From a virus, in the UHGV virus genome UHGV-1462696: a stretch of DNA of 23,864 bases; one strand, written 5' to 3'. Position 1 is the stretch's first letter, and every line of letters starts with the position of its first letter. The notes below the pieces were generated by a model. It searched no databases. It was not told where the DNA came from and saw only the letters and a program-made list of their open reading frames with translations. Made by a program: the position numbers and the translations under genes. Of this stretch, positions 101-23,535 are shown one piece after another.

Positions 101-439
101 ATGGCTAAATCAGCAGCAGAGCGCAAAGCCGCTCAGCGCGCTCGGCAGTCCGCCGCCGGTGAGCGCAAAATTGAACTGGTGCTGGATAAGCAGGAGCAGG
201 AAATGCTGGCGCGGAACTGCGCCGCCCGGCGCCCTGGTCGCGATCCATATGAAATGGCCGAGTACATCGCGCTGCTGATCCGCCAGGATGATGCACGTGT
301 GCGCGGGCGTATAAAATCGATCAGCAGAAAACGTTGCGGTAAGTGCGGCGAGAGAGTTCCAGTTAATTCATGCCCGTGTAATGGTGACTCGCAATGCTGG
401 GTGACTAAAGGCTGGCATGAAACGAAATTAATAGTGTGA
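101..439 (+). CDS. Hypothetical small basic protein with C-terminal Cys-rich zinc-ribbon-like motif (CGKCG...CPCNGDSQC)
   Basis: 112-aa ORF with ATG at 101 and AGGA-like SD upstream; Lys/Arg-rich N-terminus, Cys cluster at C-terminus; lies directly upstream of the terminase genes. Function not recognised. Confidence 0.5.
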
Positions 440-3527: not shown

Positions 3528-3899
3528 TTATTGCTCGCTTAGCTTCTGCTTCAGCAAGTAACCTTCGAGCATCCAGATTTTGTTTACAGCATTCTGCCGG
3601 GCAATCTTCCGACCAATTTCTGCATCAAAGTTTTCATGGCTTGCACAGGCGCTTTCTCCGGTTACAGTAAATCCGTTGCGCAGCACCAGAACGCAGAAGG
3701 TCAGCAGAGAAAGTGATTCGTGCGGCTGGTAGTTTACCTCTCCGCCAGTATGTTTCGCTTTTATGGCTTTGCCAAAGGCACCATCTTCTGCTGTGAAATA
3801 TGCCTCCTGAGCAATAATGCCTTCGATATGGTCTGGCGTAACGCGCGGTGCCGTTTTGCCTTTCTCAACGATTTCTTTTTCGATTTGCTTGTCGTTCAT
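3528..3899 (-). CDS. Hypothetical small phage protein (possibly Gp49-like family)
   Basis: 123 aa; strong SD AAGGTGA 4-5 nt before ATG at 3899; central motif CVLVLRNGFTVTGESACASHENFD resembles small conserved phage proteins; family assignment is from memory only. Confidence 0.55.
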   Translation of the reverse strand: MNDKQIEKEIVEKGKTAPRVTPDHIEGIIAQEAYFTAEDGAFGKAIKAKHTGGEVNYQPHESLSLLTFCVLVLRNGFTVTGESACASHENFDAEIGRKIARQNAVNKIWMLEGYLLKQKLSEQ

Positions 3900-3910
3900 A
3901 ATCTCACCTT

Positions 3911-4808: not shown

Positions 4809-4822
4809 CCGGAGTCATTGAA

Positions 4823-6502: not shown

Positions 6503-6795
6503 CAGATTACGAAGACGATCAACTGAAAGAAGAAAACGCCCGTAAGCAACGTGACATGGCACAGCGTGAAATTGATGACATTCGCTTTGTCATGAGCAGT
6601 GAACAGGGGCGTCGGGTTGTCTGGTCGGTACTGGAGAAAGGCCGTGTGTTTTCCGCTATCTCGCCGATGGACGCTATGGCAATGGCATTTAATGAGGGGC
6701 AACGCAATCTGGCGCTGGAACTGTTTCAGCGCGTTATGGCGCATTGCCCTGAACAGTATTTGAAGATGGCCAAAGAGGCCAGTGAACAGGAGTGA
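6499..6795 (+). CDS. Hypothetical protein (98 aa) between portal and scaffold
   Basis: ATGA start/stop overlap with portal, consistent with translational coupling. Confidence 0.55.
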   Translation: MTDYEDDQLKEENARKQRDMAQREIDDIRFVMSSEQGRRVVWSVLEKGRVFSAISPMDAMAMAFNEGQRNLALELFQRVMAHCPEQYLKMAKEASEQE

Positions 6796-6797
6796 TC

Positions 6798-7493: not shown

Positions 7494-7507
7494 GAGAGGA
7501 AATGACA

Positions 7508-8494: not shown

Positions 8495-8545
8495 CGCCTG
8501 TTATTAACCTGTGGGTCGTAACAGACCCACTAATGGAGAAAGAAG

Positions 8546-8992
8546 ATGATCACCGACAAACTGTTGATGTTCTCCGAAGCTCAGGCGGTTACGAATACCG
8601 CGGCTTCTACTGACGTAATCGATCTCGGTCCAATTGACGGAAAGCGTCGTGATATCGGCGTTGGTTACCCGCTTGAGTTTTGGGCGCTGGTTAACACAGC
8701 CGCCGCGGCAAGCGGTGATGCAACTGTAAACATCCAGTTGCAGACGAGTGAGAATAACAGCTCATGGACCACTATTTATGATAGTGGCGCACTGGCAAAG
8801 ACCGCCCTGACAGCAGGTAAACGAGTTGTTTCTGCAAAGGTGCCTGCCGGTGTTCAGCGATATCTGCGTGTTAACTACTCCGTCGCAACTGGCCCACTAA
8901 CGGCTGGCGAATTCACTGCTGGTATCAGTCTTGATGTTGATGCCAATACGCCGTATACGCCGTATCCGATCCGCTCAAAAGTAACTGGTTAA
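8546..8992 (+). CDS. Hypothetical head-associated protein (148 aa)
   Basis: GGAG SD; in structural operon after the capsid gene; Thr/Ala/Gly-rich. Confidence 0.5.
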   Translation: MITDKLLMFSEAQAVTNTAASTDVIDLGPIDGKRRDIGVGYPLEFWALVNTAAAASGDATVNIQLQTSENNSSWTTIYDSGALAKTALTAGKRVVSAKVPAGVQRYLRVNYSVATGPLTAGEFTAGISLDVDANTPYTPYPIRSKVTG

Positions 8993-9002
8993 GGTGATAT
9001 CG

Positions 9003-9338
9003 ATGTCAGGTGAGAAACCAAGATACCGCGTTCTGCGCCTCTCTCATATCCATAACACTCTGTGGCCGGAGGGGGCAGAAATCGAATACGAAGGTGAGCC
9101 TGGTAGCGCACTGGAACCTGTTAACGATGCAGCCAGACAGGCAAAAGCAAAAGTTGCAGGAAAGGTGTCAATGGCAGCAACCAGCACCAAAATCATCAAC
9201 GATGTGTCAGATGATGGTGAACTGGATAAGCTCCGTGAAGAGTACGAATTGCTCTTTAACGAGAAGCCACACCATAACGCCAAAGCCGAAACGCTCCGCG
9301 AGAAGATCGCAGATAAGCGTAAAGAACTGGGCGTGTAA
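9003..9338 (+). CDS. Hypothetical structural-module protein (111 aa)
   Basis: ATG at 9003 with AAGGTGA SD; the track ORF starts at GTG 8994. Confidence 0.5.
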   Translation: MSGEKPRYRVLRLSHIHNTLWPEGAEIEYEGEPGSALEPVNDAARQAKAKVAGKVSMAATSTKIINDVSDDGELDKLREEYELLFNEKPHHNAKAETLREKIADKRKELGV

Positions 9339-9355
9339 GCCTCGCGAATCAGACA

Positions 9356-9376
9356 AGGGGCTTCGGCCCCTTTATT
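9356..9376 (+). terminator. Intrinsic terminator (AGGGGC-ttcg-GCCCCT followed by TTATT) after the capsid gene block
   Basis: Read directly; analogous in position to the terminator after T7 gene 10. Confidence 0.6.
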
Positions 9377-9388
9377 GCAGGAGTGTAT

Positions 9389-9712
9389 ATGGAACTCGTA
9401 AACCTCAAAACAGGCACTGACAGCTACCAGGATGAGAGCGGAGAAACCAGAACTCGCGATGAATACCCGTGGGGGCTGTGCATCACGCTGAATAACGACA
9501 CATTGAATAAGCTGAAGGCGCAACCTCAGGGCGTCGGAACAGAAGTGATGATAACTGCAAAGGCTGTTATTCGAGGCCTGTCTGCCAGAGAAACTGACGA
9601 TGGTGTTAATCGCAGCGCCGATCTGCAGATCACTGATATGGCTATCGCTCCTGTTTCCGGTGATGTAGGAAAATCAGCGGCTGAAACTCTGTACGGCAAT
9701 GGGGGGGAGTAA
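9389..9712 (+). CDS. Hypothetical small virion protein (107 aa)
   Basis: ATG at 9389 with AGGAG SD 6 nt upstream; TAATG overlap with the next gene. Confidence 0.5.
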   Translation: MELVNLKTGTDSYQDESGETRTRDEYPWGLCITLNNDTLNKLKAQPQGVGTEVMITAKAVIRGLSARETDDGVNRSADLQITDMAIAPVSGDVGKSAAETLYGNGGE

Positions 9713-10317
9713 TGGCCTCTGTAGTAGAGATCTGCAATCGCGCGCTGTCCAATATTGGCAATAGCCGCAGCATTAACAGCCTGACGGAAGCCAGCAAGGA
9801 AGCGGGGGAATGTTCGCTGCATTTCGATGCCTGTCGTGATGCTGTGCTTTCTGATTTTGACTGGAACTTTGCTACCAAACGCGTGGCGCTTGCAGATACG
9901 AGCAATCCACCGCCTGACTGGGCGTATGCGTATCAGTACCCGTCTGATTGCCTGCGCATCACTGAAATCATGCTTCCCGGTGTTCGCAATCCAACAGCAG
10001 CAATGCGCGTTCAGTACGAAGTTGGTGCAGACACCGACGGAACAGGAAAGTTGATCTACACAGACCAGCCGCAGGCATGGCTCAAGTATGTCTCTCGCGT
10101 TTCAGATGTGAACATGTTTGATGCCATTTTTATGGAGGCGTTGGCCTGGCGTCTTGCGGCAGCTATTAACATGGCGCTGACTGGGAATGCAGACCTCGGT
10201 ACGTTTGCCCTCAATATGTACAATCGCGTGATTCTTAGTGCTGGCTCGCATAGCCAGAATGAATCACAGGAACCACAGCCACCGGTTGACGAGTTTACCA
10301 TTGCGAGGTTGTCCTGA
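9712..10317 (+). CDS. Tail tubular protein A / adaptor (T7 gp11-like)
   Basis: 201 aa (T7 gp11 is 196 aa); N-terminal NRALSNIGNSRSINSLTE and DFDWNFA resemble T7 gp11 NDILASIGEPPVSTLE and RGWTFN as recalled; position directly before a gp12-sized gene. Confidence 0.55.
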   Translation: MASVVEICNRALSNIGNSRSINSLTEASKEAGECSLHFDACRDAVLSDFDWNFATKRVALADTSNPPPDWAYAYQYPSDCLRITEIMLPGVRNPTAAMRVQYEVGADTDGTGKLIYTDQPQAWLKYVSRVSDVNMFDAIFMEALAWRLAAAINMALTGNADLGTFALNMYNRVILSAGSHSQNESQEPQPPVDEFTIARLS

Positions 10318-12788
10318 TGGCTATCAGTTGGATCCAGCCCAGCTTTGCCGGTGGTGAGATTGGACCGTCGTTGTACGGTCGTATCGACATGGCGAAGTAC
10401 CAGGTGGCATTGCGCAAGTGCGATAACTTTATCGTGCGGCAGTATGGCGGCGTTGAGAATCGACCTGGTACGCGTTTTGTCGGTGCCGCCAAATACCCAA
10501 ATCGGAAATGCCGCCTGATCCCGTTCCAGTTCTCGACGGTTCAGACTTATGCTCTGGAGTTCGGACACCAGTACATGCGCGTTATCAAAGATGGTGCGTT
10601 GGTGCTGAACAGCAGCAATGTTATTTATGAAATTGCCACGCCATATACTGAAGCCGATCTGTTCCGAATTAAATTCACGCAAAGCGCAGACGTGCTTACG
10701 CTGGTTCATCCGGCATACCCGCCGAAAGAGTTGCGCCGCTATGCGCATGACAACTGGCAACTGGTTGATGTGGTAACGAAGAACGGGCCATTTGAAGATA
10801 TCAATATTGACGAGTCAGTGACGGTTTATGCCAGCGCCAGCACCGGGACAATTACGTTAACGGCAAACGCCTCTATTTTTGGCGCGGAGCAGGTAGGCAA
10901 ATTGTTCTATCTGGAACAGCCTGCAGTGGATTCAGTGCCGGTATGGGAAACCAGTAAGAGTACGTCGATTGGCGATATTCGCCGTGCAGACAGTAACTAC
11001 TATCGCGCCGTTACAGCAGGCAAAACAGGCACTTTGCGCCCTTCGCATACAGAAGGCACATCATGGGATGGCTGGGGCGGATCCGGTGATGATGATACCG
11101 GCATTGAGTGGGAGTATCTGCACAGTGGTTTTGGCATTGCCCGTATCTCTGCTGCAAATGGAACTACTGCAACTGCCGAGGTGATTTCCTATATCCCTTC
11201 GCAGGTCGTTGGCGAGGATAATGCCAGCTATAAATGGGCTAAATATGCCTGGAACAGTGTTAATGGTTATCCTGGCACTGTTGTTTATTATCAACAACGT
11301 CTTTACTTCGCCGCATCGACTGCGTTCCCTCAGACTATCTGGGCCAGCCGTACCGGGGATTATAAGGATTTTGGCAAAAGCAATCCTACGCAGGATGACG
11401 ACAGAATTATCTACACCTATGCCGGGCGTCAGGTTAATGAGATCCGCCACCTGATTGATGTCGGTTCGCTGGTGGCACTGACTTCCGGAGGTGAGTACGT
11501 CATCACCGGCGACCAGAACAAAGTGTTAACCCCATCATCATTTGCATTCAGCTCTCAGGGATCAAATGGCTCGAGCAATGTCCCACCAATTGCCGTGGCG
11601 AATATTGCTCTGTTCGTCCAGGAGAAAGGCAGTGTTGTCCGTGATCTGGCCTACTCATTCGATGTTGACGGCTATCAGGGGAACGACCTGACCATCCTTG
11701 CCAATCATCTTTTTCAGAAGCACAGCATTGTTGACTGGTGCTTCTCTATTGTCCCTTACTCCAGCGCCTTCTGCATTCGTGATGACGGTAAATTACTGGT
11801 GATGACCTATTTGCGTGATCAGCAGGTTTTTGCATGGGCACCACAATCCAGTACCGGAAAATATGAAAGCACATGCAGTATCAGCGAAGGCAATGAAGAT
11901 GCGGTGTATTTCGTCGTTAACCGAACCGTTAACGGGCAAACAGCGAGATACATCGAGAGACTGTCCAGCCGTTTATTTACCAGCGATGAAGATGCTTTCT
12001 TTGTTGATTCTGGCCTTAGCTATGATGGAAGAAATACGTCTGACAGAACGATGACCATCACTGGTGGTTCTGGTGAATGGGATTACCGTGCGGAATATAC
12101 AATCAGTGTTTCTGGTGGTGCGTACTTCACCAGTAGTGATGTCGGCGCGCAACTACAGTTCCCTTATACCGGAACTGTTCCTGATACTGGCGATGAAGTG
12201 TCAAAAGAATTACGTTGCGACATTATTTCTGTAACCAGCAATACCGCTGTAGTGGTTCGTCCTAACAGGAACATCCCGCCATCCCTCAGGAATGTGGCCA
12301 CCACGAACTGGCAGATGGCGCGCCGGACATTTGGCGGCTTGTCTCATCTTGAAGGTCAGACCGTAAACATCCTCTCTGATGCGAACGTGGAACCACAGAA
12401 AGTTGTTTCCGGAGGTGCCGTCACGCTGGAATCTCCGGGGGCTGTAGTGCACATCGGTCTGCCAATAACTGCTGAATTCGAAACACTGGATATCAACATT
12501 AACGGACAGGAAACGCTGCTGGACAAAAAACAGGTGATCCCCTCCGTTACTCTGGTTGTGAATGCCAGTCGCGGCATCTGGGCGACTACGCCCGGCGGTA
12601 AATGGTACGAATATCCACAGCGTGAATTCGAGTTCTACGATGATCCTGTTGATGATGCTACCGGAAAAGTAGAAGTGAAACTTGACAGTAACTGGGGCAA
12701 AAACGGACGTGTAAAAATCCGTCAGCTTGACCCGTTGCCGCTGTCTGTTCTTGCCGTTATTCCTCGCCTTACTGTTGGGGGATTCTGA
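10317..12788 (+). CDS. Tail tubular protein B / nozzle (T7 gp12-like)
   Basis: 823 aa (T7 gp12 is 794 aa); N-terminal pattern I-x-P-x-F-A-G-G-E-I-G-P ... RPG resembles the gp12 N-terminus; order and overlapping start codon. Confidence 0.5.
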   Translation: MAISWIQPSFAGGEIGPSLYGRIDMAKYQVALRKCDNFIVRQYGGVENRPGTRFVGAAKYPNRKCRLIPFQFSTVQTYALEFGHQYMRVIKDGALVLNSSNVIYEIATPYTEADLFRIKFTQSADVLTLVHPAYPPKELRRYAHDNWQLVDVVTKNGPFEDINIDESVTVYASASTGTITLTANASIFGAEQVGKLFYLEQPAVDSVPVWETSKSTSIGDIRRADSNYYRAVTAGKTGTLRPSHTEGTSWDGWGGSGDDDTGIEWEYLHSGFGIARISAANGTTATAEVISYIPSQVVGEDNASYKWAKYAWNSVNGYPGTVVYYQQRLYFAASTAFPQTIWASRTGDYKDFGKSNPTQDDDRIIYTYAGRQVNEIRHLIDVGSLVALTSGGEYVITGDQNKVLTPSSFAFSSQGSNGSSNVPPIAVANIALFVQEKGSVVRDLAYSFDVDGYQGNDLTILANHLFQKHSIVDWCFSIVPYSSAFCIRDDGKLLVMTYLRDQQVFAWAPQSSTGKYESTCSISEGNEDAVYFVVNRTVNGQTARYIERLSSRLFTSDEDAFFVDSGLSYDGRNTSDRTMTITGGSGEWDYRAEYTISVSGGAYFTSSDVGAQLQFPYTGTVPDTGDEVSKELRCDIISVTSNTAVVVRPNRNIPPSLRNVATTNWQMARRTFGGLSHLEGQTVNILSDANVEPQKVVSGGAVTLESPGAVVHIGLPITAEFETLDININGQETLLDKKQVIPSVTLVVNASRGIWATTPGGKWYEYPQREFEFYDDPVDDATGKVEVKLDSNWGKNGRVKIRQLDPLPLSVLAVIPRLTVGGF

Positions 12789-13252
12789 TGATCGATGTTC
12801 GAATTATTCCCGCCACCGAAGAGCATCTTCAGATGATTTTGCCGGATGTTCGTCAGGCTGATATTGACGAACTGTATGCGGTATCGCTGATGACTACCGA
12901 AGATGCGCTGCGTGTTGGTCTTCGCACTGCGACTATGGCCTGGTCAGGGTTCGCAAACGGAGAACTGGTAACCATGTTTGGTGTATCTCCGGCGTCAATG
13001 ATCGGTGGCAATGGTACGCCCTGGCTGGTCGGGACCAGCCGTATTGAAAAATATCAGAAGACATTTCTGCGCCACTGCCGCCCTGTATTGCAGCAGATGC
13101 TGGCAGTTTATCCGCGCCTGGAAAACTATGTCGATGAGCGAAACCATGTTGCCAAAGCATGGCTGCACTGGCTTGGATTCAGGCTTGAAGAAGCCGCGCC
13201 TTATGGTGCACTTGGTCTTAATTTCCACAGATTTCACATGGAGAGAAAATAA
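12788..13252 (+). CDS. Hypothetical virion-module protein (154 aa)
   Basis: TGATG overlap with upstream gene; position corresponds to T7 gp13. Confidence 0.45.
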   Translation: MIDVRIIPATEEHLQMILPDVRQADIDELYAVSLMTTEDALRVGLRTATMAWSGFANGELVTMFGVSPASMIGGNGTPWLVGTSRIEKYQKTFLRHCRPVLQQMLAVYPRLENYVDERNHVAKAWLHWLGFRLEEAAPYGALGLNFHRFHMERK

Positions 13253-13797
13253 TGTGCGATCCGGTTATTGCTGGTGGCGCAATGCTCGCCATGAGTGGCA
13301 TTCAGGCATACACCCAGTACCAACAGGGAAAGTATGCCTCGAAGGTTGCAGAAGCGAACGCAGATATAGCCACAGCTCAGGCAAATGATGCAATAAACAG
13401 GGGTAACGCTGAAGCTGAGCAACGGCGCAGAGAGACCCGACAGCGGCTTGGTACACAGGCGGCGACAATGGGGGCTACCGGCTCTGATTTATCTACAGGT
13501 AACGCGCTGGATATATTTGGCGACACTGCCCAGTTTGGCGCTCTTGATTCGCTGACGACGGTGAATAACGCGCAACGCGAGGCTTACGGTTATCAGGTTC
13601 AGGCTGCCAACTATAAAGCAGAAGCCAGTTCAGCCCGTAAACAGGGGAATGTGGGAGCAGCAACAACATTGCTCACTGCGCCTCTGAAGGCATACGGTGC
13701 GTACCAGATGTTTGGTGGGACGTGGAGTCCGTTTACTCAAAGCACCCCCGCGCCAATCAGGGCAGCAGCAGGAACCAGATTACCCGGAGGATTATAA
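13252..13797 (+). CDS. Putative internal virion protein (181 aa, Ala/Gln/Gly-rich)
   Basis: Position corresponds to T7 gp14; TAATG overlap with the next gene. Confidence 0.45.
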   Translation: MCDPVIAGGAMLAMSGIQAYTQYQQGKYASKVAEANADIATAQANDAINRGNAEAEQRRRETRQRLGTQAATMGATGSDLSTGNALDIFGDTAQFGALDSLTTVNNAQREAYGYQVQAANYKAEASSARKQGNVGAATTLLTAPLKAYGAYQMFGGTWSPFTQSTPAPIRAAAGTRLPGGL

Positions 13798-16418
13798 TGC
13801 CAGTCGTACCAACAGTATCCGGACGTCAGGTTGAGAGCCGTGGAGTTCAGTCAGCAGGCTTGCAGACGTTTTCTCAGCCAGGTATTGGTGATGCTTTTGT
13901 TCTGGCAGGGACAGAGGCAATTGATGTTCTGGGTCAGGCAAAACAGCGCGCCAATATTGCCTTGGTTCAGGAGGCATCCCTTAAACTCAGTCAGACAGGC
14001 AGTGATCTGCTGAATAATCCTGAAACAGGATTGCTTAACCTGAAAGGGAAAAATGCTATTGGAAAAGGTCAGGAGTATACGCAGCAGTTTGATGCCCAGG
14101 TCGAGCAACTGGCTATGTCGCTGCCGGATGAACAGGCTCGTAATGCTTTCATGCAGCAGGCGCAGCAGCAGCGCATTCAGTTCACTACGCAGGCCGGGAG
14201 GTACGAAATAGGACAGGTTCGCCAGTATGAGGCGGATATGCAGGATGCGACACTAAAAAACCTATCGATGCAGTTCCGTAACCCGACAATGGCAAACCAG
14301 GCAGGATTGAAGGCATATCATAGCATCATCGCTTACGGCGAAGCCCACGGCCAGAGTCAGGAAGAGATCGAACAGAACTGGGTTTCGTGGCGCGAGAATG
14401 CCGCGAACGGTGCGGCGGAGGCGTGGTATGTGCCGATGTATCAACAGATGATGGGTCCGAACGGCAAGATTGAGGTAACCGATACACCGAGTGAGGCGCA
14501 GTTATTCTCTGCAATAATCTGGCAGGAGAGTGGCGGAAATCAGTACGGAAAGGACGGAACACCTCTGGTGTCGCCAAAAGGCGCTGTTGGCGTAGCGCAG
14601 GTGACGGAAGATACTGGCCCCGAAGCTGCCCGCCTTGCTGGCGTGCCGTGGGACCGCGATAAATGGTTGAATGACCCGCGCTATAATGCCCGCTTGGGGC
14701 AAGCTTATTTCGGCGCGCAGATGAAGAAATACGACAATAACCCGGTTCTGGCAGTAGCTGCCTATAACGCTGGCCCAGGAAAGGTTGACGGCTGGATTAA
14801 ACAGATTGGCGACCCGCGCACAGGCGAAGTCAGTAACGCCCAGTTTGCCGCAGCTATCCCATACGACGAGACGCGCAATTATGTGGCAAAAGTAACTGGC
14901 AGTGCTGGAGCTATTCCTGGATCTGCGACGATGGAAAACCTCATCGCACAGCCATTCTGGAACGCCATGAGTCCGGACAAAAAGTCGCAGATGATGAGCA
15001 AGGTTGCTGGCATGTACGACATGCAGGCTTCAGCCGGTCGCGTTGCGCTACAGAGTCGAATGCAGGACGACCTATCCAAAATTGAGGCCGGTAAGCAGGT
15101 GACGCCTATTTCAGCGCACGAATGGGCCGCCGTTATGCCGCTTCAGGCAGCGCCTGCCGAGCGCCTGCAGATGGAAAAAACCTTCCAGCAATACCAGCAG
15201 GCAATGACGCTACAACCTGTTTATCAGACCATTATGCAGGGCAACGTCCAGCAGGGTACCGCCGCCGTGCAGGCAATGGCACCGCAGGAAAACGACCCTG
15301 ACTTTAAATACAAAGCAGAGCTTTATGCATCGGCAAAGGTCAAGCTTGGGCAGGTACTGAAGGCGCGGGAAGCGGATCCGGGGGCATGGCTGCAACAAAA
15401 CTCTCCGGTTGTGCAGGCTGCATTCCAGCAGTACCTGAATGACCCTTCATCTGGTGAATACCTAGTTTCCCGAATACAGTCTGAAAAAGACCGCCTGGGG
15501 ATAATGAGCAAAAAAGTTTTACCGGAGTCCATGGTCAATGATGTACTGCAGCGTATTGACAACACGCAGGAATCTAGCGTAAAGGCCATTCAGTCGGTGG
15601 CGCAGTCGTTCGGCAAATACTCGGATCAGGTGATGCAGCAGGTTCAGAAGAGCGCTTATCCTGCGTTGCAGGTTGTCATGGCTACCGAGAACCCGCGCGC
15701 GGCAAATGCGCTCTGGCAAAACCGTAGCGTTAAAACTGCTGACTTACGCGGCAGTCTTGAGAAAACCGACGCGGATAGCGCCGACTCGTCATGGAATGAC
15801 CAATCGAAAGATTTTGCTGGCACGATGGTTGTTCAGCCTGGTGGCACTGCCGTGTGGAATAACTTCAACGAGCAGGGAAAACGACTTACTTACATCAACA
15901 TGCAGCGCGGAATGTCGGCGTCTGATGCAGCAAAACAGGCGTATCAGGACATCCTCGGCGAGCAGTACCAGACCAATGGCACTTGGCGGCTACCTAAGCG
16001 TGCAGGGATAGATATTCGTGACGTTAACGATGGTGCCAATGCGTATCTGAAAAACCTGTCAGCAGATCAGATTATGCCGCTTATTGGTGACCCAAGGCTA
16101 CCTGATGAGGTCAACCGTGAGCAGAGTATCTCCCGCATTCGTGATAATGCGCAGTGGGTTACCAACAGCGACGAAACAGGACTTACCCTGATGCTCAACG
16201 GGCTGATCGTCAACGGTGCCGACGGCAACCCGATTACGGTGCCGTTCAACGATCTGGCGAAACTGGGAACAACCAACCGATCAGTATGGAACAGCATTAC
16301 CAAGTTCATTGATACTCCGGTGAAATATACTCCCGGACAGTCTAAGGAATACAGCGCAGAAAGTCAGCGCGACAACCTGATTAACATTTTCCAGAACGGC
16401 CAGCAATCAGGACGATAA
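13797..16418 (+). CDS. Internal virion protein with lytic transglycosylase (SLT) domain
   Basis: SLT catalytic signature EAQLFSAIIWQESGGNQYG ... VGVAQV ... AAYNAGPGKV read directly; ATG at 13797 with GGAGG SD is the likely start, so the track ORF from 13722 overlaps the upstream gene. Confidence 0.8.
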   Translation: MPVVPTVSGRQVESRGVQSAGLQTFSQPGIGDAFVLAGTEAIDVLGQAKQRANIALVQEASLKLSQTGSDLLNNPETGLLNLKGKNAIGKGQEYTQQFDAQVEQLAMSLPDEQARNAFMQQAQQQRIQFTTQAGRYEIGQVRQYEADMQDATLKNLSMQFRNPTMANQAGLKAYHSIIAYGEAHGQSQEEIEQNWVSWRENAANGAAEAWYVPMYQQMMGPNGKIEVTDTPSEAQLFSAIIWQESGGNQYGKDGTPLVSPKGAVGVAQVTEDTGPEAARLAGVPWDRDKWLNDPRYNARLGQAYFGAQMKKYDNNPVLAVAAYNAGPGKVDGWIKQIGDPRTGEVSNAQFAAAIPYDETRNYVAKVTGSAGAIPGSATMENLIAQPFWNAMSPDKKSQMMSKVAGMYDMQASAGRVALQSRMQDDLSKIEAGKQVTPISAHEWAAVMPLQAAPAERLQMEKTFQQYQQAMTLQPVYQTIMQGNVQQGTAAVQAMAPQENDPDFKYKAELYASAKVKLGQVLKAREADPGAWLQQNSPVVQAAFQQYLNDPSSGEYLVSRIQSEKDRLGIMSKKVLPESMVNDVLQRIDNTQESSVKAIQSVAQSFGKYSDQVMQQVQKSAYPALQVVMATENPRAANALWQNRSVKTADLRGSLEKTDADSADSSWNDQSKDFAGTMVVQPGGTAVWNNFNEQGKRLTYINMQRGMSASDAAKQAYQDILGEQYQTNGTWRLPKRAGIDIRDVNDGANAYLKNLSADQIMPLIGDPRLPDEVNREQSISRIRDNAQWVTNSDETGLTLMLNGLIVNGADGNPITVPFNDLAKLGTTNRSVWNSITKFIDTPVKYTPGQSKEYSAESQRDNLINIFQNGQQSGR

Positions 16419-16419: not shown

Positions 16420-18117
16420 ATGCCAATTTACACAGATGATCCGGGACAGGGAATTAACCAGCCAATTGGCAACGCGCCAGCAGGGCTTGGCGAATCGCTG
16501 CTTTCTTCCCTTAAGCAGGGATTTGAAGAGGGGCCGGTCATGTCCGGCTACCGCTTTGCGCAGGCCGACTCGCTGGCGAATGACCCAAACTCTACAGTTA
16601 TCAGTAAGCAGGAAGCGGATGAGCTCCTGAAGCAGTACGGCGTAAAGAGCATAAACGTGCCAGATTCTGGCGTTACGCAGGCTTTTCTCGATCATGTTAT
16701 TGCCGAACGCAAAGATTCTCTGGCACGCCAGCAGATCGCGATGTCGGCACCGAGCGGGTGGGTAGCCACGCCGCTTAATTTCGCAGCCAGCCTAGCTGGT
16801 TCAATGGCAGATCCTGGTAACGTGGCGCTGGCGCTGGTTCCGTTCGCTGGAGAAGCAAAGGCGGCTTCTGTGCTTGGCCGATTTGGCGAGCGATTTGTTG
16901 CTGGTGCACGCATGGGGGCAGCGCAGGCGGTGGTGACCGTGCCGCTTACCGGGCTGGCAGCGGCGGCGGAAGGTGACGACTTCACCTATAGCAACGCGTT
17001 GGAAAGTACTTTCTTTAACACGATGGCTGGCGGTCTAATGCATGCCGGCGGCGGCCTTATCGCCGATATCGTGCGACCGCGTCGCGTTCCCGATGCTGCA
17101 ACGGGAGAGTCCCCGGCGTTTTCTGGCGATGCGCAGCCAACCCCGGTGATAACGCCTGACAACATTCCGGCGGGCGTGAATATCCCTGAGGTTGGCGCTA
17201 ACGCAGATCTGGCGGCGGCCATTTCCAGTGAAGCGGAGAGCTACGCATACAGCCGGGCTTATGACGACGTGGTTCCTGACTATATGGCGCGCCAGCAGGA
17301 GTTACAGAGCGGGCAGATCGGTAACGTTGCCGACCTGCGTGCCGAGCTTGCGGCTAATCAACGTCATGCTGACTCGCTTGATGCGACGCTGCAGCAGCGC
17401 ACCAAAAAGTATCAGGGGCAGCGGATGAAGTTTAAGGATGCGCGCTCTAGGGCACTGAAAGAGATTCAGGCCGAGAAAGACGCCATCGCTGCACGCAATC
17501 AGGAGATCAACACATCGCTGGAGCAGAACGCGACAGCAGAGCAGGCGCGCTGGCGCCAGTCTCAGATTTCCCGCGGCGATATCCCCGACGATCTGAAAGT
17601 CACCATTTCCGAGCGTGCGCAGCAGATCCTGGACGGCATGCAGATGTCGCCGGTCGCTGGCGCAGTTCGCACTGCCGCAAGCGCCATCAGGGATGCTGAC
17701 TGGAACGTGAACCAGCAGGCGTATCGCGCTGCGCTGGCACACATGATGGAAGGACGTAGCCCAGATGTTGAGCCCTTCTATGAACTGCACAAACCGGCAC
17801 TGCGTGAACGCGCCATCCATCGCATACAGAACCCGGCACGGCAGGTTGATGAAACGGCTCGCCCAGCAAGCGAAACAGCCGATCGGGTTTATCAAGAAAC
17901 GCAAAAGGCAGATCATGAAATTACCGCTGCCGCTGCAGACCTTGATAACGAGCTCAACCTGAGTAACGCCCTGCTTGACGATATCGCTGTCGATAACCCT
18001 GATCTTGCGACCACGTTGCGCCAGAAACTCAATGATATTCGTGCCGACGCCAGCGACAATAGCATGAGCAACGCTTTCCGGGCATTTGCCGCCTGTATGA
18101 TTAACCGGGGGATGTGA
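16420..18117 (+). CDS. Putative internal virion / ejection protein (565 aa)
   Basis: Ala-rich large protein within the block of large virion proteins; tightly coupled to neighbours. Confidence 0.5.
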   Translation: MPIYTDDPGQGINQPIGNAPAGLGESLLSSLKQGFEEGPVMSGYRFAQADSLANDPNSTVISKQEADELLKQYGVKSINVPDSGVTQAFLDHVIAERKDSLARQQIAMSAPSGWVATPLNFAASLAGSMADPGNVALALVPFAGEAKAASVLGRFGERFVAGARMGAAQAVVTVPLTGLAAAAEGDDFTYSNALESTFFNTMAGGLMHAGGGLIADIVRPRRVPDAATGESPAFSGDAQPTPVITPDNIPAGVNIPEVGANADLAAAISSEAESYAYSRAYDDVVPDYMARQQELQSGQIGNVADLRAELAANQRHADSLDATLQQRTKKYQGQRMKFKDARSRALKEIQAEKDAIAARNQEINTSLEQNATAEQARWRQSQISRGDIPDDLKVTISERAQQILDGMQMSPVAGAVRTAASAIRDADWNVNQQAYRAALAHMMEGRSPDVEPFYELHKPALRERAIHRIQNPARQVDETARPASETADRVYQETQKADHEITAAAADLDNELNLSNALLDDIAVDNPDLATTLRQKLNDIRADASDNSMSNAFRAFAACMINRGM

Positions 18118-20666
18118 TGGCAGCAAACGAATTTTTGACGCAGTGCGAGCGCAGTGTAAATGCTGCCGCTGGTCGCGAGCTTTCTTCCGATGAGATGGAG
18201 TCGCTGGTGCGTGACATGAACGACACCACTAGGCGAATTCTGGCGACCAATGAGGCGCTGTCTCTGGAAGAGGCCGCGATGCGCGCAGCGGAAGAACTGA
18301 GCAATGCCGATATGCTGGCAAAACAGATTGAGGCTCGCAATAAGGCAATCAACGCCCGTATTGCCGCACAACGACTTAGAGAGCTTCGTACTATCTGGAA
18401 AGACCGCCCGGATATCGGGCTTGAAGCAATGCTGGTTGGCCGCAACGATGCGCGTACCGGCGCCCGCCGGTCGGTATCTTCGGAGGTGGCGCAACTGCGC
18501 GGCAAGTATCATTCCGGTATCAACTACGATTTTGACCGTGCCGGACTGGTGCAATTCATCGCCAGCGGCAGCAATGACCGGGAAATTGCCGATGCAATGT
18601 GGCGCATAGGGCGCGGGCAGTCAACTGACGGTATGACAAAGCAATCCGTAAGCGCTGCACAAATCATCATGAAATGGCAGGAAACTGCGCGCATTGATGA
18701 GAACCGCGCCGGGGCATGGATACGCAAAGAGCCGGGCTATATAGTTCGCCAGTCACACGACATCATGAAGATCCGCGCCGCAGGTTATGAAGCATGGCGA
18801 AATGCTATTCTCCCGCGCCTTGATGAGCGCACTTTTGACGGCGTGGCTGACCGCGAGCAGTTCATGCGTAACATTTATAACGGGCTGGCTTCCGGCGTGC
18901 ATCTTACATCTGAAAAGCCCGATTGGATGAATGGCTTTAAGGGATCGGCGAACGCAGCTAAACGCGCCAGCCAAGAGCGAATTTTGCACTTCAAAGATGG
19001 TATCTCGTGGCACGAGTACAACCAGCAATTCGGCACCGGCAGCCTGCGAGAAGCGCTGTTTGGTGGCTTAAACAGCGCTGCCCGCACAACGGGCATGATG
19101 CGCGTACTGGGCACTAACCCACAGAACATGTTTAAGTACCTGACGGACGCCATTGCTGAAGATATCAGCAAATCCGGAAGACCGGCAGCGTTGGCTGACT
19201 ACATGACGAAGGTGCGTCGCATTAACCGTACCGTAATGCCGCAGGTTGACGGCTCGCTAAATATTCCTGGCAGCGTAGGCTGGGCCAATGCGTCGGCGGC
19301 TGTACGCGGCTGGTTGCGTATGAGCCAACTTGGTGGTGCGGTAATCTCATCGTTTAACGACGTGCCTATCGCCGCTACCGAGATGCGCTACCAAGGGCAG
19401 AATTTTATGCAGGCGTTGCTTGGTGCTATGAGAGGCCGCTTCACGCGTTACAACAGCGCGGAGCAGAAAGAGATCCTTTCCTCTATCGGAGTTTATTCCG
19501 ACTCCATGACGCAGGAAATCATCCGGCGCATATCTGGTGATGACACGCTGAATGGAAAGCTTGGTCGCGCGCAGCAGCTTTTCTTTAAGTACAACCTCAT
19601 GAACTTCTGGACCGAGAGCGGTCGCAACAGCAACGCCATGATGATAACCAACTGGCTTGCAAAGAATGCTGACCAGTCTCATGCGCGGCTACCGGAAGAC
19701 CTGCGACGCGTGCTGGATCTGCACGGTATTGGCGAACGTGAGTGGGAAATTTTTCGCAACATGGACATGGCCGATAGCGAAGGTCGTAAGTTCATGACGA
19801 CCAGCGGCATCCGCGGCGTGCCTGACGAAGTGATTGCCGGTTATGTAGAGAGTAAGGGGATCAAACCAACGCAGCGCGCTATCGCTGACGCACGCGATCA
19901 ATTGGAAGGGCAGTTGCGCGGCTACATCCTTGACCGCCTGAATATCGCCATGTCAGAGCCTGGCGATCGCACGCAGGCGTTTATGAAGATGGGCACGGTG
20001 CCAGGAACGGTGGCTGGGGAAGCAATACGATTCGCTGGTCAGTACAAATCGTTCACTGCAAGCTTCATGCAGAACGTACTAGGACGCGAAGTATTCGGGC
20101 GTGGTTATATTCCTGCTGGGCTTGGTGAGTCGAAAACCGGATCGCTGACGAATGCGCTGCTACGTAACGGGAAGGGGGCTTTCCTTGGTGCTGCAAACCT
20201 CTTTGTCTGGGCGACTATGTTTGGTTATATCTCCATGCAGTCAAAACTCATGCTGAAAGGGCAAACACCACGCCCGGCAGATGCCAAGACGTTTCTCGCA
20301 GCCGCATCTCAGGGGGGCGGTCTTGGCATCTTGGGTGACTTCATGTTTGGCGAGGTCAACCGCATGGGGGCCGGGCCGGTTACGTCGCTAATGGGGCCAG
20401 CAGCATCGAACGCTGACAGCATTATCACGCTGCTCCAGCAGACCACGAGAGGGGATGCAGATTTGGGTGACTGGTATCGCACGGCACTTGACAATACGCC
20501 ATTCCTCAACGTGTTCTGGCTTCGTACGGCGATGAATGGTTTAATATTGAACCGGATACAAGATGCCCTTGACCCAGGCTCTCTTGAGCGTTATCAGCGC
20601 CGTGTTGAGCGTGAGCAGGGTAACGACTTTCTGATCCCACCATCGCAGTTCATGCTAGGTAAATAA
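18117..20666 (+). CDS. Putative internal virion / ejection protein (about 850 aa)
   Basis: Large ORF, TGATG overlap with upstream gene; hydrophobic C-terminal segments (FLGAANLFVWATMFGYI) consistent with a membrane-interacting ejection protein. Confidence 0.5.
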   Translation: MAANEFLTQCERSVNAAAGRELSSDEMESLVRDMNDTTRRILATNEALSLEEAAMRAAEELSNADMLAKQIEARNKAINARIAAQRLRELRTIWKDRPDIGLEAMLVGRNDARTGARRSVSSEVAQLRGKYHSGINYDFDRAGLVQFIASGSNDREIADAMWRIGRGQSTDGMTKQSVSAAQIIMKWQETARIDENRAGAWIRKEPGYIVRQSHDIMKIRAAGYEAWRNAILPRLDERTFDGVADREQFMRNIYNGLASGVHLTSEKPDWMNGFKGSANAAKRASQERILHFKDGISWHEYNQQFGTGSLREALFGGLNSAARTTGMMRVLGTNPQNMFKYLTDAIAEDISKSGRPAALADYMTKVRRINRTVMPQVDGSLNIPGSVGWANASAAVRGWLRMSQLGGAVISSFNDVPIAATEMRYQGQNFMQALLGAMRGRFTRYNSAEQKEILSSIGVYSDSMTQEIIRRISGDDTLNGKLGRAQQLFFKYNLMNFWTESGRNSNAMMITNWLAKNADQSHARLPEDLRRVLDLHGIGEREWEIFRNMDMADSEGRKFMTTSGIRGVPDEVIAGYVESKGIKPTQRAIADARDQLEGQLRGYILDRLNIAMSEPGDRTQAFMKMGTVPGTVAGEAIRFAGQYKSFTASFMQNVLGREVFGRGYIPAGLGESKTGSLTNALLRNGKGAFLGAANLFVWATMFGYISMQSKLMLKGQTPRPADAKTFLAAASQGGGLGILGDFMFGEVNRMGAGPVTSLMGPAASNADSIITLLQQTTRGDADLGDWYRTALDNTPFLNVFWLRTAMNGLILNRIQDALDPGSLERYQRRVEREQGNDFLIPPSQFMLGK

Positions 20667-20668: not shown

Positions 20669-21229
20669 ATGAAGGCAATTATATTTTTTGTTTCAATATT
20701 GATGTCTGCATTTTCTTTTGCAGGGCAAAATGTTAAATGCGAACTTCAATACTTTGGAGATAACGATAAATTTAAGGTAACTCAGTTTTCTTTTATGGGG
20801 ATTCCATCTGATTCATACCTTTATACCTGTGCCGACTGTGGAGGCATCCAGATAAACGTGTTCCCATCTATTCAGACTGTTGCTTCCTACTCATTTGAAA
20901 ACAACATTGATTTCGAAAGGAAAATCAATGCTGAATACAACAGAAAAGACATAGCTAAACTTGAGATGGAAAACGTTACTCAAGGCGGGAGAATAAAATA
21001 TTCAATCACCGATACTGGTTTGGCAGAGTTTTACCCAGAGGGCAAAAAGATAAGCTACCTCTACTTTTTAGCCAAGCAACAAAATGGTAAAGAACAAGTA
21101 GGTTATTCAGGATTTGTTACCTCTAACGGGGATAAGTCATGCTCAATTATTGCGACATATCCAGGAAAAGAAATTTCTTTTCTGGGAAGTAAATCTTTAA
21201 GCTACTTTATGAATCATATATCAATGTAG
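20669..21229 (+). CDS. Secreted or periplasmic hypothetical protein (moron)
   Basis: Signal peptide MKAIIFFVSILMSAFSFA then GQN, no lipobox; strongly AT-rich codon usage unlike the flanking virion genes; starts 2 nt after the upstream stop, so likely co-transcribed with late genes. Confidence 0.6.
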   Translation: MKAIIFFVSILMSAFSFAGQNVKCELQYFGDNDKFKVTQFSFMGIPSDSYLYTCADCGGIQINVFPSIQTVASYSFENNIDFERKINAEYNRKDIAKLEMENVTQGGRIKYSITDTGLAEFYPEGKKISYLYFLAKQQNGKEQVGYSGFVTSNGDKSCSIIATYPGKEISFLGSKSLSYFMNHISM

Positions 21230-21230: not shown

Positions 21231-21242
21231 GTGACATGTCAC
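21231..21242. repeat. Perfect 12-bp palindrome GTGACATGTCAC, copy C
   Basis: Read directly; 2 nt after the stop of the 186-aa gene and immediately before a terminator. Confidence 0.9.
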
Positions 21243-21266
21243 AGGCCGCTTTCGCGGCCTTGTTTT
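21243..21266 (+). terminator. Intrinsic terminator (AGGCCGC-tttc-GCGGCCT followed by GTTTTT) ending the + strand late transcript
   Basis: Read directly. Confidence 0.7.
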
Positions 21267-21304
21267 TAACGAATGCCACCGCCGCCCGGGCGGGAATCCG
21301 CAGA

Positions 21305-21329
21305 CACAAAAAAGCCCGCAACGCGGGCT
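21305..21329 (-). terminator. Intrinsic terminator on minus strand (AGCCCGC-gtt-GCGGGCT followed by TTTTTTGT), overlapping the stop of the YafO-like gene
   Basis: Read from the reverse complement. Confidence 0.6.
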
Positions 21330-21874
21330 TATTCCTTCCATTTATCAGAAAAAAGATCTTCTTCTAAAGGCATTGGTTCTGTTTTTGTTTTCTCAAAGAA
21401 TTGATAACTGATAGTGATTGCTTCCTCTTTAAACTCTTCTTGCTCAGTTATGTTGTGGGCATCTGCGTCAACAAAAAACATAACCAGCGCATCACGATTG
21501 TGATTTACCGAATAAACTAAAAAGCAATCACTTGTTGGTATGCATTTTACTTGCACAGACGCTATATTTTTCCATGCATCCCAAGATGATTTTTTACCAG
21601 TGTGTTTTTTATCACTATCTTCTGGAATATAGTCTTGGTTATCGACATGAGTATGCCTGACATTTAGTTTAAGCATTTCTGTCGGACGAGCAAATGCAGC
21701 ATCTTTACCAAGAGATGGATGGTATCCCGTTTTCCAATACTGGGTAAAGGCATCAGATACTTTCTTCAGCTCAAGATCAGATGCACAAAGGGCCGAGAAA
21801 TTTTGCGTATGCAATACTCGACCCTTATATCTGACAATTTGATTTTTATCATTCTGCGACGCAGACGAACTCAT
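21329..21874 (-). CDS. YafO-like toxin candidate (ribosome-dependent mRNA interferase family) with acidic C-terminal tail
   Basis: Motifs FTQYWKTGYHPSLGKDAAF, NVRHTHV and CFLVYSVNHNRDALVMFFVDADAH parallel YafO segments as recalled (FISYKRDGVLPDIFGRDALY; VAHIHL; AHLVYCQGAFDEQAWLLIAILKPEPH); AT-rich; AAGGA SD before ATG at 21874; the track ORF extends to 21901. Confidence 0.5.
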   Translation of the reverse strand: MSSSASQNDKNQIVRYKGRVLHTQNFSALCASDLELKKVSDAFTQYWKTGYHPSLGKDAAFARPTEMLKLNVRHTHVDNQDYIPEDSDKKHTGKKSSWDAWKNIASVQVKCIPTSDCFLVYSVNHNRDALVMFFVDADAHNITEQEEFKEEAITISYQFFEKTKTEPMPLEEDLFSDKWKE

Positions 21875-22028
21875 AATTTTCCTTATTGTTACGAGAATCA
21901 AAGAAAGCTCGGGATACGCGACTTGCGTGATCTTTTGTCATAGTAACTTTTACGTACTCTACGCTTCCATTGAAAGAACGTCTTGCGGCAGCTTGCGCTC
22001 TACGCATCTGCAATTTTTCGTTTCGCAT
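21849..22028 (-). CDS. Small basic ORF (59 aa, below the track cutoff); candidate antitoxin or regulator
   Basis: Hand-translated from the reverse complement: MRNEKLQMRRAQAAARRSFNGSVEYVKVTMTKDHASRVSRAFFDSRNNKENYEFVCVAE; GAGG SD 7 nt upstream; overlaps the start of the YafO-like gene by 26 nt in another frame; sigma70-like promoter TTGGTT-17-TGTAAT upstream. Confidence 0.3.
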   Translation of the reverse strand: MRNEKLQMRRAQAAARRSFNGSVEYVKVTMTKDHASRVSRAFFDSRNNKENYEFVCVAE

Positions 22029-22175: not shown

Positions 22176-22886
22176 TCAGAAGAACCCAGCCTTGTCGTTG
22201 ATGTACTCCGCGTGAGTCTGGATATCACGCAGGCATTTGCTCACACCAACGATGTAGCAAAACATGGTGGTCAGCTCCGCCGCCGCGCCCGATACATCGT
22301 GCCCGTCTTCCTGCAACTGGTTCAGCAAATTCATCAGCAGTGAGTTCTCCGTCAGGCCGAGAACACCAGACGGAGAATGAATCAGACTGCGGTAGCCGGG
22401 CTTCAGTGGGGCACTGTAGGTTTTGTTCTCTATCTTCATTGCCTGCATCACTGCTGATGCTGTGGCGTTGGCTACCTGGTCGGCAACCATCTTTATGCGT
22501 TCTTCCTGCGGGAGCGAGTTTTTAATGTAACTTCCGGTGCGGCGGATCTGAGGAAGAACCTCACCTGTAACCCATTTACGAAAGCGGTAGGGGATAGTGC
22601 CTGGTGTCACCGCATCGCGGCAGCGGAGGATCAGTGTGTAGAGGCCTGACTCGGAGATGATGTTGATCTCTTTTACTCGGCTGTCAAAAATTGCACGATG
22701 TTCATGCCCTATGTTGAACATAGACCTTTCATCATCATCCAGTTTTTCAAGTGCTTGGGTGACGTTTTGGATACGCAGCGCACTACAAACGTCTTGGGCT
22801 ACAAACCATGGTTGGCCATCGATAATGATGGAACGGATAGGGTTAACAGATTCAAATTTGAAGATGGCAGTTTGAGCATTAGCCAT
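22176..22886 (-). CDS. ant: Phage antirepressor-like protein (N-terminal Bro-N domain plus C-terminal Ant-type domain)
   Basis: N-terminal AIFKFESVNPIRSIIIDGQPWFVAQDVCSALRIQNVTQALEKLDDDE is a typical Bro-N signature; ATG at 22886 with GGAG SD is preferred over the GTG at 22901 used by the track. Confidence 0.75.
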   Translation of the reverse strand: MANAQTAIFKFESVNPIRSIIIDGQPWFVAQDVCSALRIQNVTQALEKLDDDERSMFNIGHEHRAIFDSRVKEINIISESGLYTLILRCRDAVTPGTIPYRFRKWVTGEVLPQIRRTGSYIKNSLPQEERIKMVADQVANATASAVMQAMKIENKTYSAPLKPGYRSLIHSPSGVLGLTENSLLMNLLNQLQEDGHDVSGAAAELTTMFCYIVGVSKCLRDIQTHAEYINDKAGFF

Positions 22887-23041
22887 GGTGGTTATCTCCA
22901 CTTAGTGATTTTAATCACCACCGCAACGCCAATTACTGGTGGTGAACTGGACAAGGTTGGCGTACCGGCCTAAGTGGTACCGGCGTCCTTTCGGACCCCT
23001 GCCCAGCCCACCATAATTCGGATATGGCTGTGCTTAACGCA

Positions 23042-23065
23042 TAAAAAAACCACGTCTGGCGTGGT
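23042..23065 (-). terminator. Intrinsic terminator on minus strand (ACCACG-ccaga-CGTGGT followed by TTTTTTTAT)
   Basis: Read from the reverse complement; downstream of the truncated ant paralog. Confidence 0.6.
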
Positions 23066-23155
23066 ATGCGCCACTTAGTAACTCGGGACGCCAATCCCGG
23101 CACTGGATTTTGCCAGTGCCCGATTACTATGGCACAAGAGGAGTGCGATGTAAAT

Positions 23156-23201: not shown

Positions 23202-23459
23202 TTATCTGGTTTGTTTTCGTAATTGTTCGGCACAATAGTCGAGATGTGTTTGCAGATCCCGCATAGACATCTGTGAGCTGGTGACGTAGTTAATCAGTGC
23301 AGTCAGTTCGGCAAGTGGGCCATCGACATTAAATCCATCCTTATCGAGATCCCGGAGTAATTTCATCAAGTGCGATCCCTCCACCAGTGACCTGACGCCT
23401 CCCGGCGTGTGAATCCTTTCGGTAAATCCGTCTTCCAGTGGATAGTGATACTGCTGCAT
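23202..23459 (-). CDS. Stand-alone paralog of the antirepressor C-terminal domain (about 85 aa)
   Basis: ERIHTPGGVRSLVEGSHLMKLLRDLDKDGFNVDGPLAELTALINYV...RDLQTHLDYC aligns with SLIHSPSGVLGLTENSLLMNLLNQLQEDGHDVSGAAAELTTMFCYI...RDIQTHAEYI in the ant product; ATG at 23459 with GGAG SD; the track ORF begins at 23525. Confidence 0.6.
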   Translation of the reverse strand: MQQYHYPLEDGFTERIHTPGGVRSLVEGSHLMKLLRDLDKDGFNVDGPLAELTALINYVTSSQMSMRDLQTHLDYCAEQLRKQTR

Positions 23460-23535
23460 CTTATCTTCTCCATGTAATAACTGTATATTTATACAGTAGC
23501 AAATAATTTGTTTGCTATCCAGCACGTTTTGCGAA

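Follow-up and report, generated by a model that had tools for sequence, protein, structure and literature searches.

A predicted periplasmic protein encoded in a hypervariable slot behind the last ejection-protein gene of epsilon15-like prophages: a candidate envelope exclusion or immunity factor

The window analyzed here, a 23,864-nucleotide (nt) stretch of the virus genome UHGV-1462696, covers the virion half of a prophage of the epsilon15-like (Uetakevirus-related) type. In the gene order of phages phiV10 and epsilon15, it encodes terminase, portal and capsid proteins, followed by a T7 gp14-family protein, an 898-amino acid (aa) SLT protein and two further proteins of 565 and 850 aa. Directly behind the last of these lies our subject, a gene for a 186-aa protein. 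An earlier reading of this DNA from the letters alone (the sequence-only reading) had described it as a gene appended to the virion operon, starting 2 nt after the last large virion gene and ending at copy C of a palindrome and a terminator; on the sequence, all of these descriptive points are correct. Here, we show that the gene occupies a defined hypervariable position between the 3' end of the ejection-protein gene and the palindrome-plus-terminator, that this position holds at least 14 unrelated families of low G+C content (GC), nearly all of them envelope-targeted, and that the 186-aa gene is an accessory gene rather than a core virion gene. The epsilon15-like prophage lineage that carries it is so far uncultured.

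Both boundaries of this slot can be placed precisely. The upstream boundary is the 850-aa gene, whose product belongs to PHROG 684 ('virion structural protein', E 6e-272), as does phiV10 p20. Epsilon15 gp17 and BcepC6B gp17, annotated relatives of phiV10 p20, have been assigned as homologs of IVP-D (the D protein among the internal virion proteins), the T7 gp16 type (PMC4819975), and we refer to the 850-aa protein as IVP-D; its residues 688-706 form a hydrophobic segment. Two nucleotides separate its TAA stop from the start of the 186-aa gene, leaving no intergenic space, and its last codons, CTA GGT AAA TAA (20655-20666), supply a Shine-Dalgarno (SD)-like AGG for the cassette. This AGG, inside the codons for L-G-K-stop, lies at a fixed distance, and the junction is kept across loci. 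Downstream, the exact palindrome GTGACATGTCAC begins at +2 from the stop codon of the 186-aa gene (21227-21229) and is followed by a terminator-like hairpin, itself spanning 21243-21260, with a T run after it; the phiV10 homolog of this hairpin element carries the annotation 'terminator'.

To describe what fills the slot in related prophages, we rely on a survey seeded from IVP-D, which comprises 88 loci (8 reference genomes and 80 IMG/VR contigs) with IVP-D homologs of 51-100% identity; its locus counts, like the genome counts given below, include redundant prophages and do not represent independent events. An open reading frame (ORF) of at least 40 aa that starts within 60 nt of the IVP-D stop, which we term a coupled ORF, is present in 75 of the 88 loci, mostly 0-4 nt from that stop, and absent in the other 13. 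By sequence, the coupled ORFs make up 14 families. A Sec-type leader, a lipobox or transmembrane (TM) segments are encoded by 71 of the 75. Their GC is 0.30-0.48, versus 0.48-0.61 for IVP-D. One locus, L051, holds stacked cassettes, a 123-aa gene and a 98-aa multi-TM gene, and in most enterobacterial loci GTGACATGTCAC follows the cassette, whatever its family. The slot of Pseudomonas phage Ab31 has no content.

The 186-aa family itself is carried by 16 of the 88 loci. A structural component of the virion would be expected at this position in all related phages, so its presence in so few of them agrees with the accessory, non-structural status that the sequence-only reading had given the protein. 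Three loci make the point most directly: in L034, L035 and L062, IVP-D is 99-100% identical, yet the slot holds an unrelated 123-aa secreted protein. When a survey is instead seeded from the 186-aa gene, homologs with enough surrounding sequence, down to 35% identity, all lie directly 3' of an ~850-aa IVP-D gene; we rejected the constant linkage of the two genes that this suggests, as it reflects the sampling bias of a survey seeded by the gene's own homologs. The word 'appended' fits the location directly 3' of the virion operon's last large gene, but understates that location, which is a defined slot shared with epsilon15 gp18 and phiV10 p21.

One of the other occupants belongs to a known family. 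In L018, L019, L021, L025, L063, L065 and L105, the slot encodes a 118-127-aa secreted protein of the Rap1a family (PF18602, E 1e-12, 48.8 bits versus a cut-off of 27.7; PHROG 3870, 'unknown function'), which its sequence marks as a predicted periplasmic immunity-type protein borne by a phage. An NCBIfam search of the other cassette families returned no match. This type of prophage is common in Enterobacteriaceae genomes and in IMG/VR. Among 5426 complete E. coli genomes, 56 contain the 186-aa gene and 523 contain the 70-bp palindrome-plus-terminator. None of 50,697 cultured-phage records contains a close relative of this IVP-D, the best matches being those of Stenotrophomonas phages BUCT708/709 (49% identity), followed by that of Pseudomonas phage Ab31 (45%).

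Divergence of the cassette and of its upstream neighbor is discordant. Compared with L058/L059, the synonymous divergence (dS) of the cassette is 0.33 and that of IVP-D is 1.3-1.4, whereas in L016 IVP-D is 87% identical and the cassette only 43%. We therefore conclude that cassettes are exchanged independently of the flanking virion genes, by recombination between two conserved flanks. The family also extends beyond phages. Of its two most divergent members (28-29% identity), one lies beside a SymE toxin gene and the other on a contig with TraI_2 and ArdC-like genes, where it has its own 350-nt upstream region; members on such non-phage elements indicate that the protein does not need virion genes. 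We also note the arrangement around the cassette in L016 (GCA_006035975.1) and L017 (SRR5440666), where positions ~1-15000 encode an integrase, a truncated SLT protein, a 562-aa protein, an 848-aa IVP-D, a 185-aa cassette homolog, AlpA and a DUF927 primase, with no capsid genes in view. These are either prophage remnants fused to a P4-like island or satellite-like elements with their own ejection-protein genes.

The 186-aa ORF is a real gene, since it is conserved in seven genera (E. coli, Salmonella, Citrobacter, Klebsiella, Cronobacter, Enterobacter and Hafnia) and its ratio of nonsynonymous to synonymous substitution rates (dN/dS) is ~0.085 (Nei-Gojobori, versus two homologs), which reveals clear purifying selection. 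The composition that had been called foreign is indeed distinct from that of the virion genes, with a GC of 0.353 and a GC at third codon positions (GC3) of 0.342, compared to 0.550 and 0.606 for the 850-aa gene and 0.580 and 0.604 for the 565-aa gene. It is not, however, a sign of recent arrival. Each of the seven lineages checked, at protein identities as low as 35%, has a low cassette GC (0.31-0.43, versus 0.47-0.57), and because low GC is kept in every lineage, it is a stable property of the gene.

Several features argue strongly that the product is a small soluble protein exported by the Sec pathway to the periplasm. Its N-terminus, MKAIIFFVSILMSAFSFA|GQ, combines an n-region of charge +1 with a hydrophobic core, and its S-F-A site lies after residue 18, as assessed by a heuristic scan of charge, h-region and cleavage site. 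All 19 aligned members share this arrangement: the n-region charge is +1 to +3, the h-region is 9-17 residues long, and an AXA-type site falls at residues 17-19. None of the 19 has a lipobox, and in the 186-aa protein the first cysteine lies 6 residues past the site in the context N-V-K-C; the clean Sec leader without lipobox noted from the sequence is thus borne out across the family. Residues 1-19 form the protein's sole hydrophobic window, with no further hydrophobic or TM segment. With a Sec leader and no lipobox, the product should reach the periplasm. Conservation is lower in the leader (41%) than in the mature part (57%), and the mature part contains exactly four cysteines in each of the 19 members, with C24, C54, C57 and C158 invariant in the family alignment (A2). 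A later-found twentieth member, P0158, likewise has a charged N-terminus, a hydrophobic core, a Q-A site and four cysteines.

The family is uncharacterized, although its kind is familiar: a moron-like accessory gene of a prophage, with an envelope protein as its product. The 186-aa protein has no match in Pfam, NCBIfam or PADLOC, its sole family match is PHROG 11983 ('unknown function'), and a tblastn search against the 50,697 phage records gave no cultured-phage match. The family is also small, with 8 clusters at 50% identity when 1.84 billion representatives were searched exhaustively with HMMER; searching with the A2 profile yielded one further member and 21 clusters at 90% identity, and one cluster at ≥90% identity covers several genera. 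Neither search bridges the family to another. PF18602 (Rap1a) does not match it. Sequence searches of the PDB brought up T5 Llp (8a60; E 0.14 and 0.3, over the leader and ~15 residues) and PrsA, and both were set aside as not significant.

In this sense the mature domain is of unknown function, as the sequence-only reading had it, with no family beyond PHROG 11983; it does not, however, lack a recognizable predicted fold. An AlphaFold2 model built from 19 sequences, including distant members, has a predicted local distance difference test score (pLDDT) of 86.7 and a predicted template modeling score (pTM) of 0.81, with the leader as a separate helix of low pLDDT. The five added distant members were needed for this result, as 14 close sequences gave a pLDDT of 40. 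A Foldseek search of the PDB brought back a single coherent fold group (E 7e-4 to 4e-2, TM-score 0.42-0.56, probability up to 1.0) that comprises PsbP and the PsbP-like NDH subunits (PNSL), SciW/EagT6 (DUF1795), DcrB, Mog1, and mycobacterial Apa and MTC28. Against a viral library, the best matches were two proteins named lipoproteins, one of them a 'host cell surface-exposed lipoprotein' (an Ltp-type name). The model thus supports a resemblance of the mature domain to the PsbP/Mog1/DcrB/Eag alpha/beta sandwich, but not membership in any of these families; PF08786 (DUF1795), for example, does not match any of the 19 members at E values up to 10. The fold relatives are binders of partner proteins or of hydrophobic helices, and the Eag proteins among them hold transmembrane helices. 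The coordinates of the gene, its parts and its boundaries are collected in Table 1.

Table 1. The cassette gene, its predicted parts and the elements that bound the slot (positions in the window).
Feature	Position	Strand	Remarks
850-aa protein of the IVP-D/T7 gp16 type, last internal virion (ejection) protein	18114..20666	+	Upstream slot boundary, conserved
Cassette gene	20669..21229	+	ATG start, 186 aa
Sec (signal peptidase I) leader, predicted	20669..20722	+	Residues 1-18, cleavage after S-F-A
Mature domain, ~168 aa, plus stop codon	20723..21229	+	Predicted alpha/beta sandwich, four invariant Cys
Exact palindrome GTGACATGTCAC, copy C	21231..21242	.	Conserved downstream slot boundary
Intrinsic-terminator-like hairpin AGGCCGC-TTTC-GCGGCCT plus T run	21243..21267	+	Virion operon end
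Terminator-like hairpin of the convergent YafO-like gene	21312..21330	-	Start of the minus-strand immI-like region

The sequence-only reading had the gene expressed with the late genes, and our data are consistent with this. Motif scans found no sigma-70-like site on the plus strand from 18746 to the start codon, although a weak or atypical promoter could escape them, and synonymous sites at the 3' end of IVP-D show no excess conservation (0.36-0.40, versus 0.40 elsewhere in the gene). A promoter embedded in IVP-D, which we considered, thus gains no support from either approach. Because no promoter of its own was found, the AGG lies within IVP-D codons and a terminator follows directly, the simplest reading is that the 186-aa gene is expressed as the last cistron of the virion operon; low expression from the prophage may also occur.

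The downstream boundary element recurs within the window. Exact copies of GTGACATGTCAC number three, versus 0.06 expected, at 436-447, 3512-3523 and 21231-21242, and each lies at or just past a stop, beside a terminator-like hairpin; the adjoining stops are those of genes 101..439 (+) and 3528..3899 (-) and of the 186-aa gene. A copy with one mismatch lies within a coding region at 6551-6562, and phiV10 has exact copies at equivalent places, 2262 and 19493. Palindrome and hairpin together look like a conserved palindrome-terminator composite at operon ends, which could act in protein binding or anti-termination, or mark a recombination boundary. The palindrome also forms the -35 of an antisense promoter-like site at 21242-21213 (-) (GTGACA, 18 nt, TATGAT; 10/12 matches) that is directed into the 3' end of the 186-aa gene.

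Beyond the terminator, and before the tailspike gene, the minus strand carries an immI-like region of the P1/P7 type for antirepressor control, as identified from its sequence. Rfam detects, above the gathering score, a C4 antisense RNA at 22935-23018 (-) (66 bits) and the Hfq-binding RNA isrK at 23043-23119 (-) (67 bits), both just upstream of a Bro-N/Ant antirepressor gene at 22176..22901 (-). A 107-aa ORF at 23202-23525 (-) has a C-terminal half that by eye resembles the Ant/Bro-N C-terminal domain (HTPGGVRSLVEGSHLMKLLRDLDKDGFNV versus HSPSGVLGLTENSLLMNLLNQLQEDGHDV), and may be a partial duplicate of it. A YafO-like gene at 21329..21901 (-) (190 aa; YafO_toxin Pfam, 26.1 bits versus a cut-off of 25; PHROG 1651) is convergent to the cassette gene and likewise has a low GC; its counterpart in phage TL-2011b is annotated as a YafO-family toxin. 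A 59-aa ORF that overlaps it upstream, at 21849-22028 (-), could be its partner. At the other end of the window, a tRNA-Arg(TCT) gene lies at 4098-4174 (-), between minus-strand accessory genes and the portal gene.

From its position, predicted localization and slot-mates, we tentatively propose that the 186-aa protein excludes incoming phages at the level of the envelope, by interfering with their DNA-delivery conduit, a reading in which we have limited confidence. A Rap1a-family protein and small two-TM proteins fill the same slot, which suggests that the cassette product acts at the envelope in exclusion or immunity. In the mechanism we envisage, the PsbP/DcrB/Eag-like surface of the protein would bind a periplasm-exposed part of incoming ejection proteins or, alternatively, a host periplasmic or inner-membrane partner that these proteins need, and the trans-envelope DNA conduit of superinfecting related podophages would be left incomplete. 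The P22 protein SieA provides a precedent: it blocks the ejection-protein conduit and is present in 22 of 66 P22-like phages, and phages escape it when the ejection proteins gp16 and gp20 are altered at their C-termini (PMC10883804). The map order in P22, 7-20-16 / sieA / mnt-arc-ant-sar (immI) / gene 9 tailspike, resembles that in our window: ejection proteins / cassette / YafO-like and Ant (Bro-N) with the C4 and isrK RNAs / tailspike. Like sieA, then, the 186-aa gene lies between the last ejection-protein gene and an immI/tailspike region, is found in a minority of relatives and encodes a predicted envelope protein. It may thus be viewed as a positional analog of sieA, one that would achieve the effect of SieA from the equivalent map position by means of a soluble periplasmic protein.

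A number of observations weigh against this proposal. The analogy to P22 is weakened by differences in strand, promoter, topology and homology: sieA lies on the opposite strand, has its own promoter and is expressed from the prophage, whereas the 186-aa gene is co-oriented with the virion operon and coupled to it, and SieA is a three-TM protein of the inner membrane, whereas the 186-aa protein is predicted to be soluble and periplasmic and shares no sequence similarity with it (hhalign of A2 versus SieA, probability 0.28%). A classical lysogen-protecting role needs prophage expression, and our scans found no promoter. Cassette type does not track the IVP-D allele, which disfavors a tightly co-evolved pair of cassette and ejection protein, and the Rap1a-type slot-mate fits threats other than phages equally. 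The structural argument also has its bounds, with moderate fold matches (TM-score ~0.5) to a model built on only 19 sequences, and with an hhalign probability of 0.05% versus DcrB and a DcrB alignment (A4) of low diversity (≥78% identity). Finally, a literature search by accession and PHROG identifier found no paper on the family, whose every database name is 'hypothetical protein'.

A more novel version of the proposal would make this a new type of exclusion, and we consider it improbable. Here, a soluble periplasmic Eag/DcrB-like protein would capture hydrophobic or C-terminal segments of ejection proteins, or mimic a DcrB-type injection cofactor, and would thereby keep the trans-envelope conduit from ever reaching the inner membrane. 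In that case the slot would be a hot spot in which epsilon15-like prophages shuffle envelope-immunity cassettes against both phages and type VI secretion system (T6SS) effectors, each cassette docked on the SD site within IVP-D and bounded by the palindrome and terminator.

The threat need not be a phage at all. The 186-aa protein could instead be an orphan periplasmic immunity protein against a T6SS effector, a bacteriocin or a similar toxin, and benefit the lysogen in bacterial competition, an alternative that we judge unlikely but that draws on some of the same evidence. A sibling cassette of this slot genuinely belongs to the Rap1a family, and Rap1a is described as neutralizing the T6SS peptidoglycan hydrolase Ssp1 (PMC3852654). 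Small size, predicted periplasmic location and a disulfide-type pattern of cysteines all suit immunity proteins. The divergent members on contigs resembling conjugative elements and the spread of a single cluster at ≥90% identity over several genera also speak for this role. The family itself, however, matches no known immunity family, and the sole T6SS immunity structure among its fold matches, PA3488 (5xmg), is a weak one (TM-score 0.2-0.3). This role, too, would require expression in the lysogen, for which no promoter was found, and no cognate effector is known. The tight coupling of the gene to the late operon, by a 2-nt gap, an SD-like site within IVP-D, the lack of a promoter in the scans and an immediately following terminator, would suit a late lytic helper that is made with the virion proteins and acts at the envelope only during productive infection, where it could tune lysis timing, protect the sacculus from the phage's own or an incoming SLT protein, or spare progeny genomes from being injected into the dying cell. 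The operon also contains the gene for an ejection protein with an SLT domain, epsilon15 gp18 and phiV10 p21 share the same architecture, and the periplasmic antiholin RI of phage T4 illustrates how lysis timing can be tuned from this compartment. We nonetheless consider such a helper decidedly unlikely: the slot's content is unrelated between phages and absent in 13 of the 88 loci and in Ab31, which fits poorly with a fixed lytic step, a conserved lysis cassette is present elsewhere, family members also occur outside phages, and the fold matches include no known inhibitor of lysozymes or transglycosylases.

Co-translation with the ejection-protein genes also raises the idea that the product is a virion-associated protein, an Eag-like assembly chaperone that holds hydrophobic IVP-D segments, or a small ejection protein with an N-terminal helix that serves for membrane insertion and not as a signal peptide. 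Its fold resembles that of SciW/EagT6, which hold the transmembrane helices of effectors, and both IVP-D and the 565-aa protein contain moderately hydrophobic segments. The distribution of the gene, however, essentially excludes this class of roles and leaves it only a very small probability: only 16 of the 88 relatives have the gene, loci with 99-100% identical IVP-D carry unrelated cassettes, and members occur without any virion genes. The h-region, AXA site and four invariant cysteines moreover fit export and cleavage. P22 gp7, which we had considered as an example of an ejection protein with a signal-like leader, was dropped, as its record attributes the cleavage to OpdA.

If the 186-aa protein does act in exclusion or immunity, an uncharacterized soluble periplasmic family would join a field dominated by membrane proteins and lipoproteins, with a predicted fold shared by DcrB, a host factor for phage entry, and by the TM-helix-holding chaperones of the T6SS. 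The slot is the more useful result. Its boundary element occurs in ~10% of complete E. coli genomes, and its at least 14 families of small envelope proteins, almost all unstudied, form a compact, testable panel for new envelope-level defenses and for ways to block the ejection proteins of podophages. Should no slot family show a phenotype, the 186-aa gene would be an ordinary hypothetical moron. We consider the precisely bounded, many-allele slot and the PsbP/DcrB-like fold to be the parts worth following.

Several known systems help to place the 186-aa protein. T5 Llp is likewise a small phage-encoded envelope protein that blocks infection, and the weak local match between the two spans the leader and a K-C-E..Y..D..K.K pattern, but Llp is a 61-aa lipoprotein that binds FhuA, whereas the 186-aa protein lacks a lipobox. 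Rap1a (PF18602) is linked to it by location: a member of that family, itself low in GC and equipped with a Sec leader, is the occupant in sibling prophages, whereas the 186-aa protein itself has no similarity to it. DcrB, a host factor in the periplasm that phages C1, C6 and Arnold require for infection, is close in size (185 aa), compartment and predicted fold, and is linked to phage DNA entry. DcrB is a lipoprotein, however, and the Eag proteins are cytoplasmic, while the 186-aa protein has a predicted cleavable leader, no lipobox and four cysteines. Eag proteins are further defined by obligatory pairing with an effector that contains transmembrane domains; the 186-aa protein carries a leader, and identical IVP-D proteins occur without the 186-aa gene.

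Closer in genomic setting are the cultured relatives and the morons of lambdoid phages. Epsilon15 gp18 (64 aa) and phiV10 p21 (46 aa) lie in the same slot, overlapping the IVP-D stop or within 10 nt of it, and are followed by a terminator, in phiV10 with the same palindrome that follows the 186-aa gene. Both are membrane proteins with two TM segments, envelope-targeted and uncharacterized, that are unrelated to it in sequence, and the IVP-D proteins of the two phages are only ~24% identical to the 850-aa protein described here. Among the classical lambdoid morons are HK97 gp15, which blocks DNA entry, and genes of the lambda lom/bor type; classical morons have their own promoter and are expressed from the prophage. 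Like them, the 186-aa gene is an extra late-operon gene that is found in some relatives only, has low GC and its own terminator, and encodes a predicted envelope product. Variable presence, deviant composition and a terminator of its own are thus all found here, while simple scans detected no promoter of its own. The 186-aa gene differs from lambdoid morons in having no intergenic space or detectable promoter, and in its setting: the slot behind IVP-D is a fixed docking site with many alleles.

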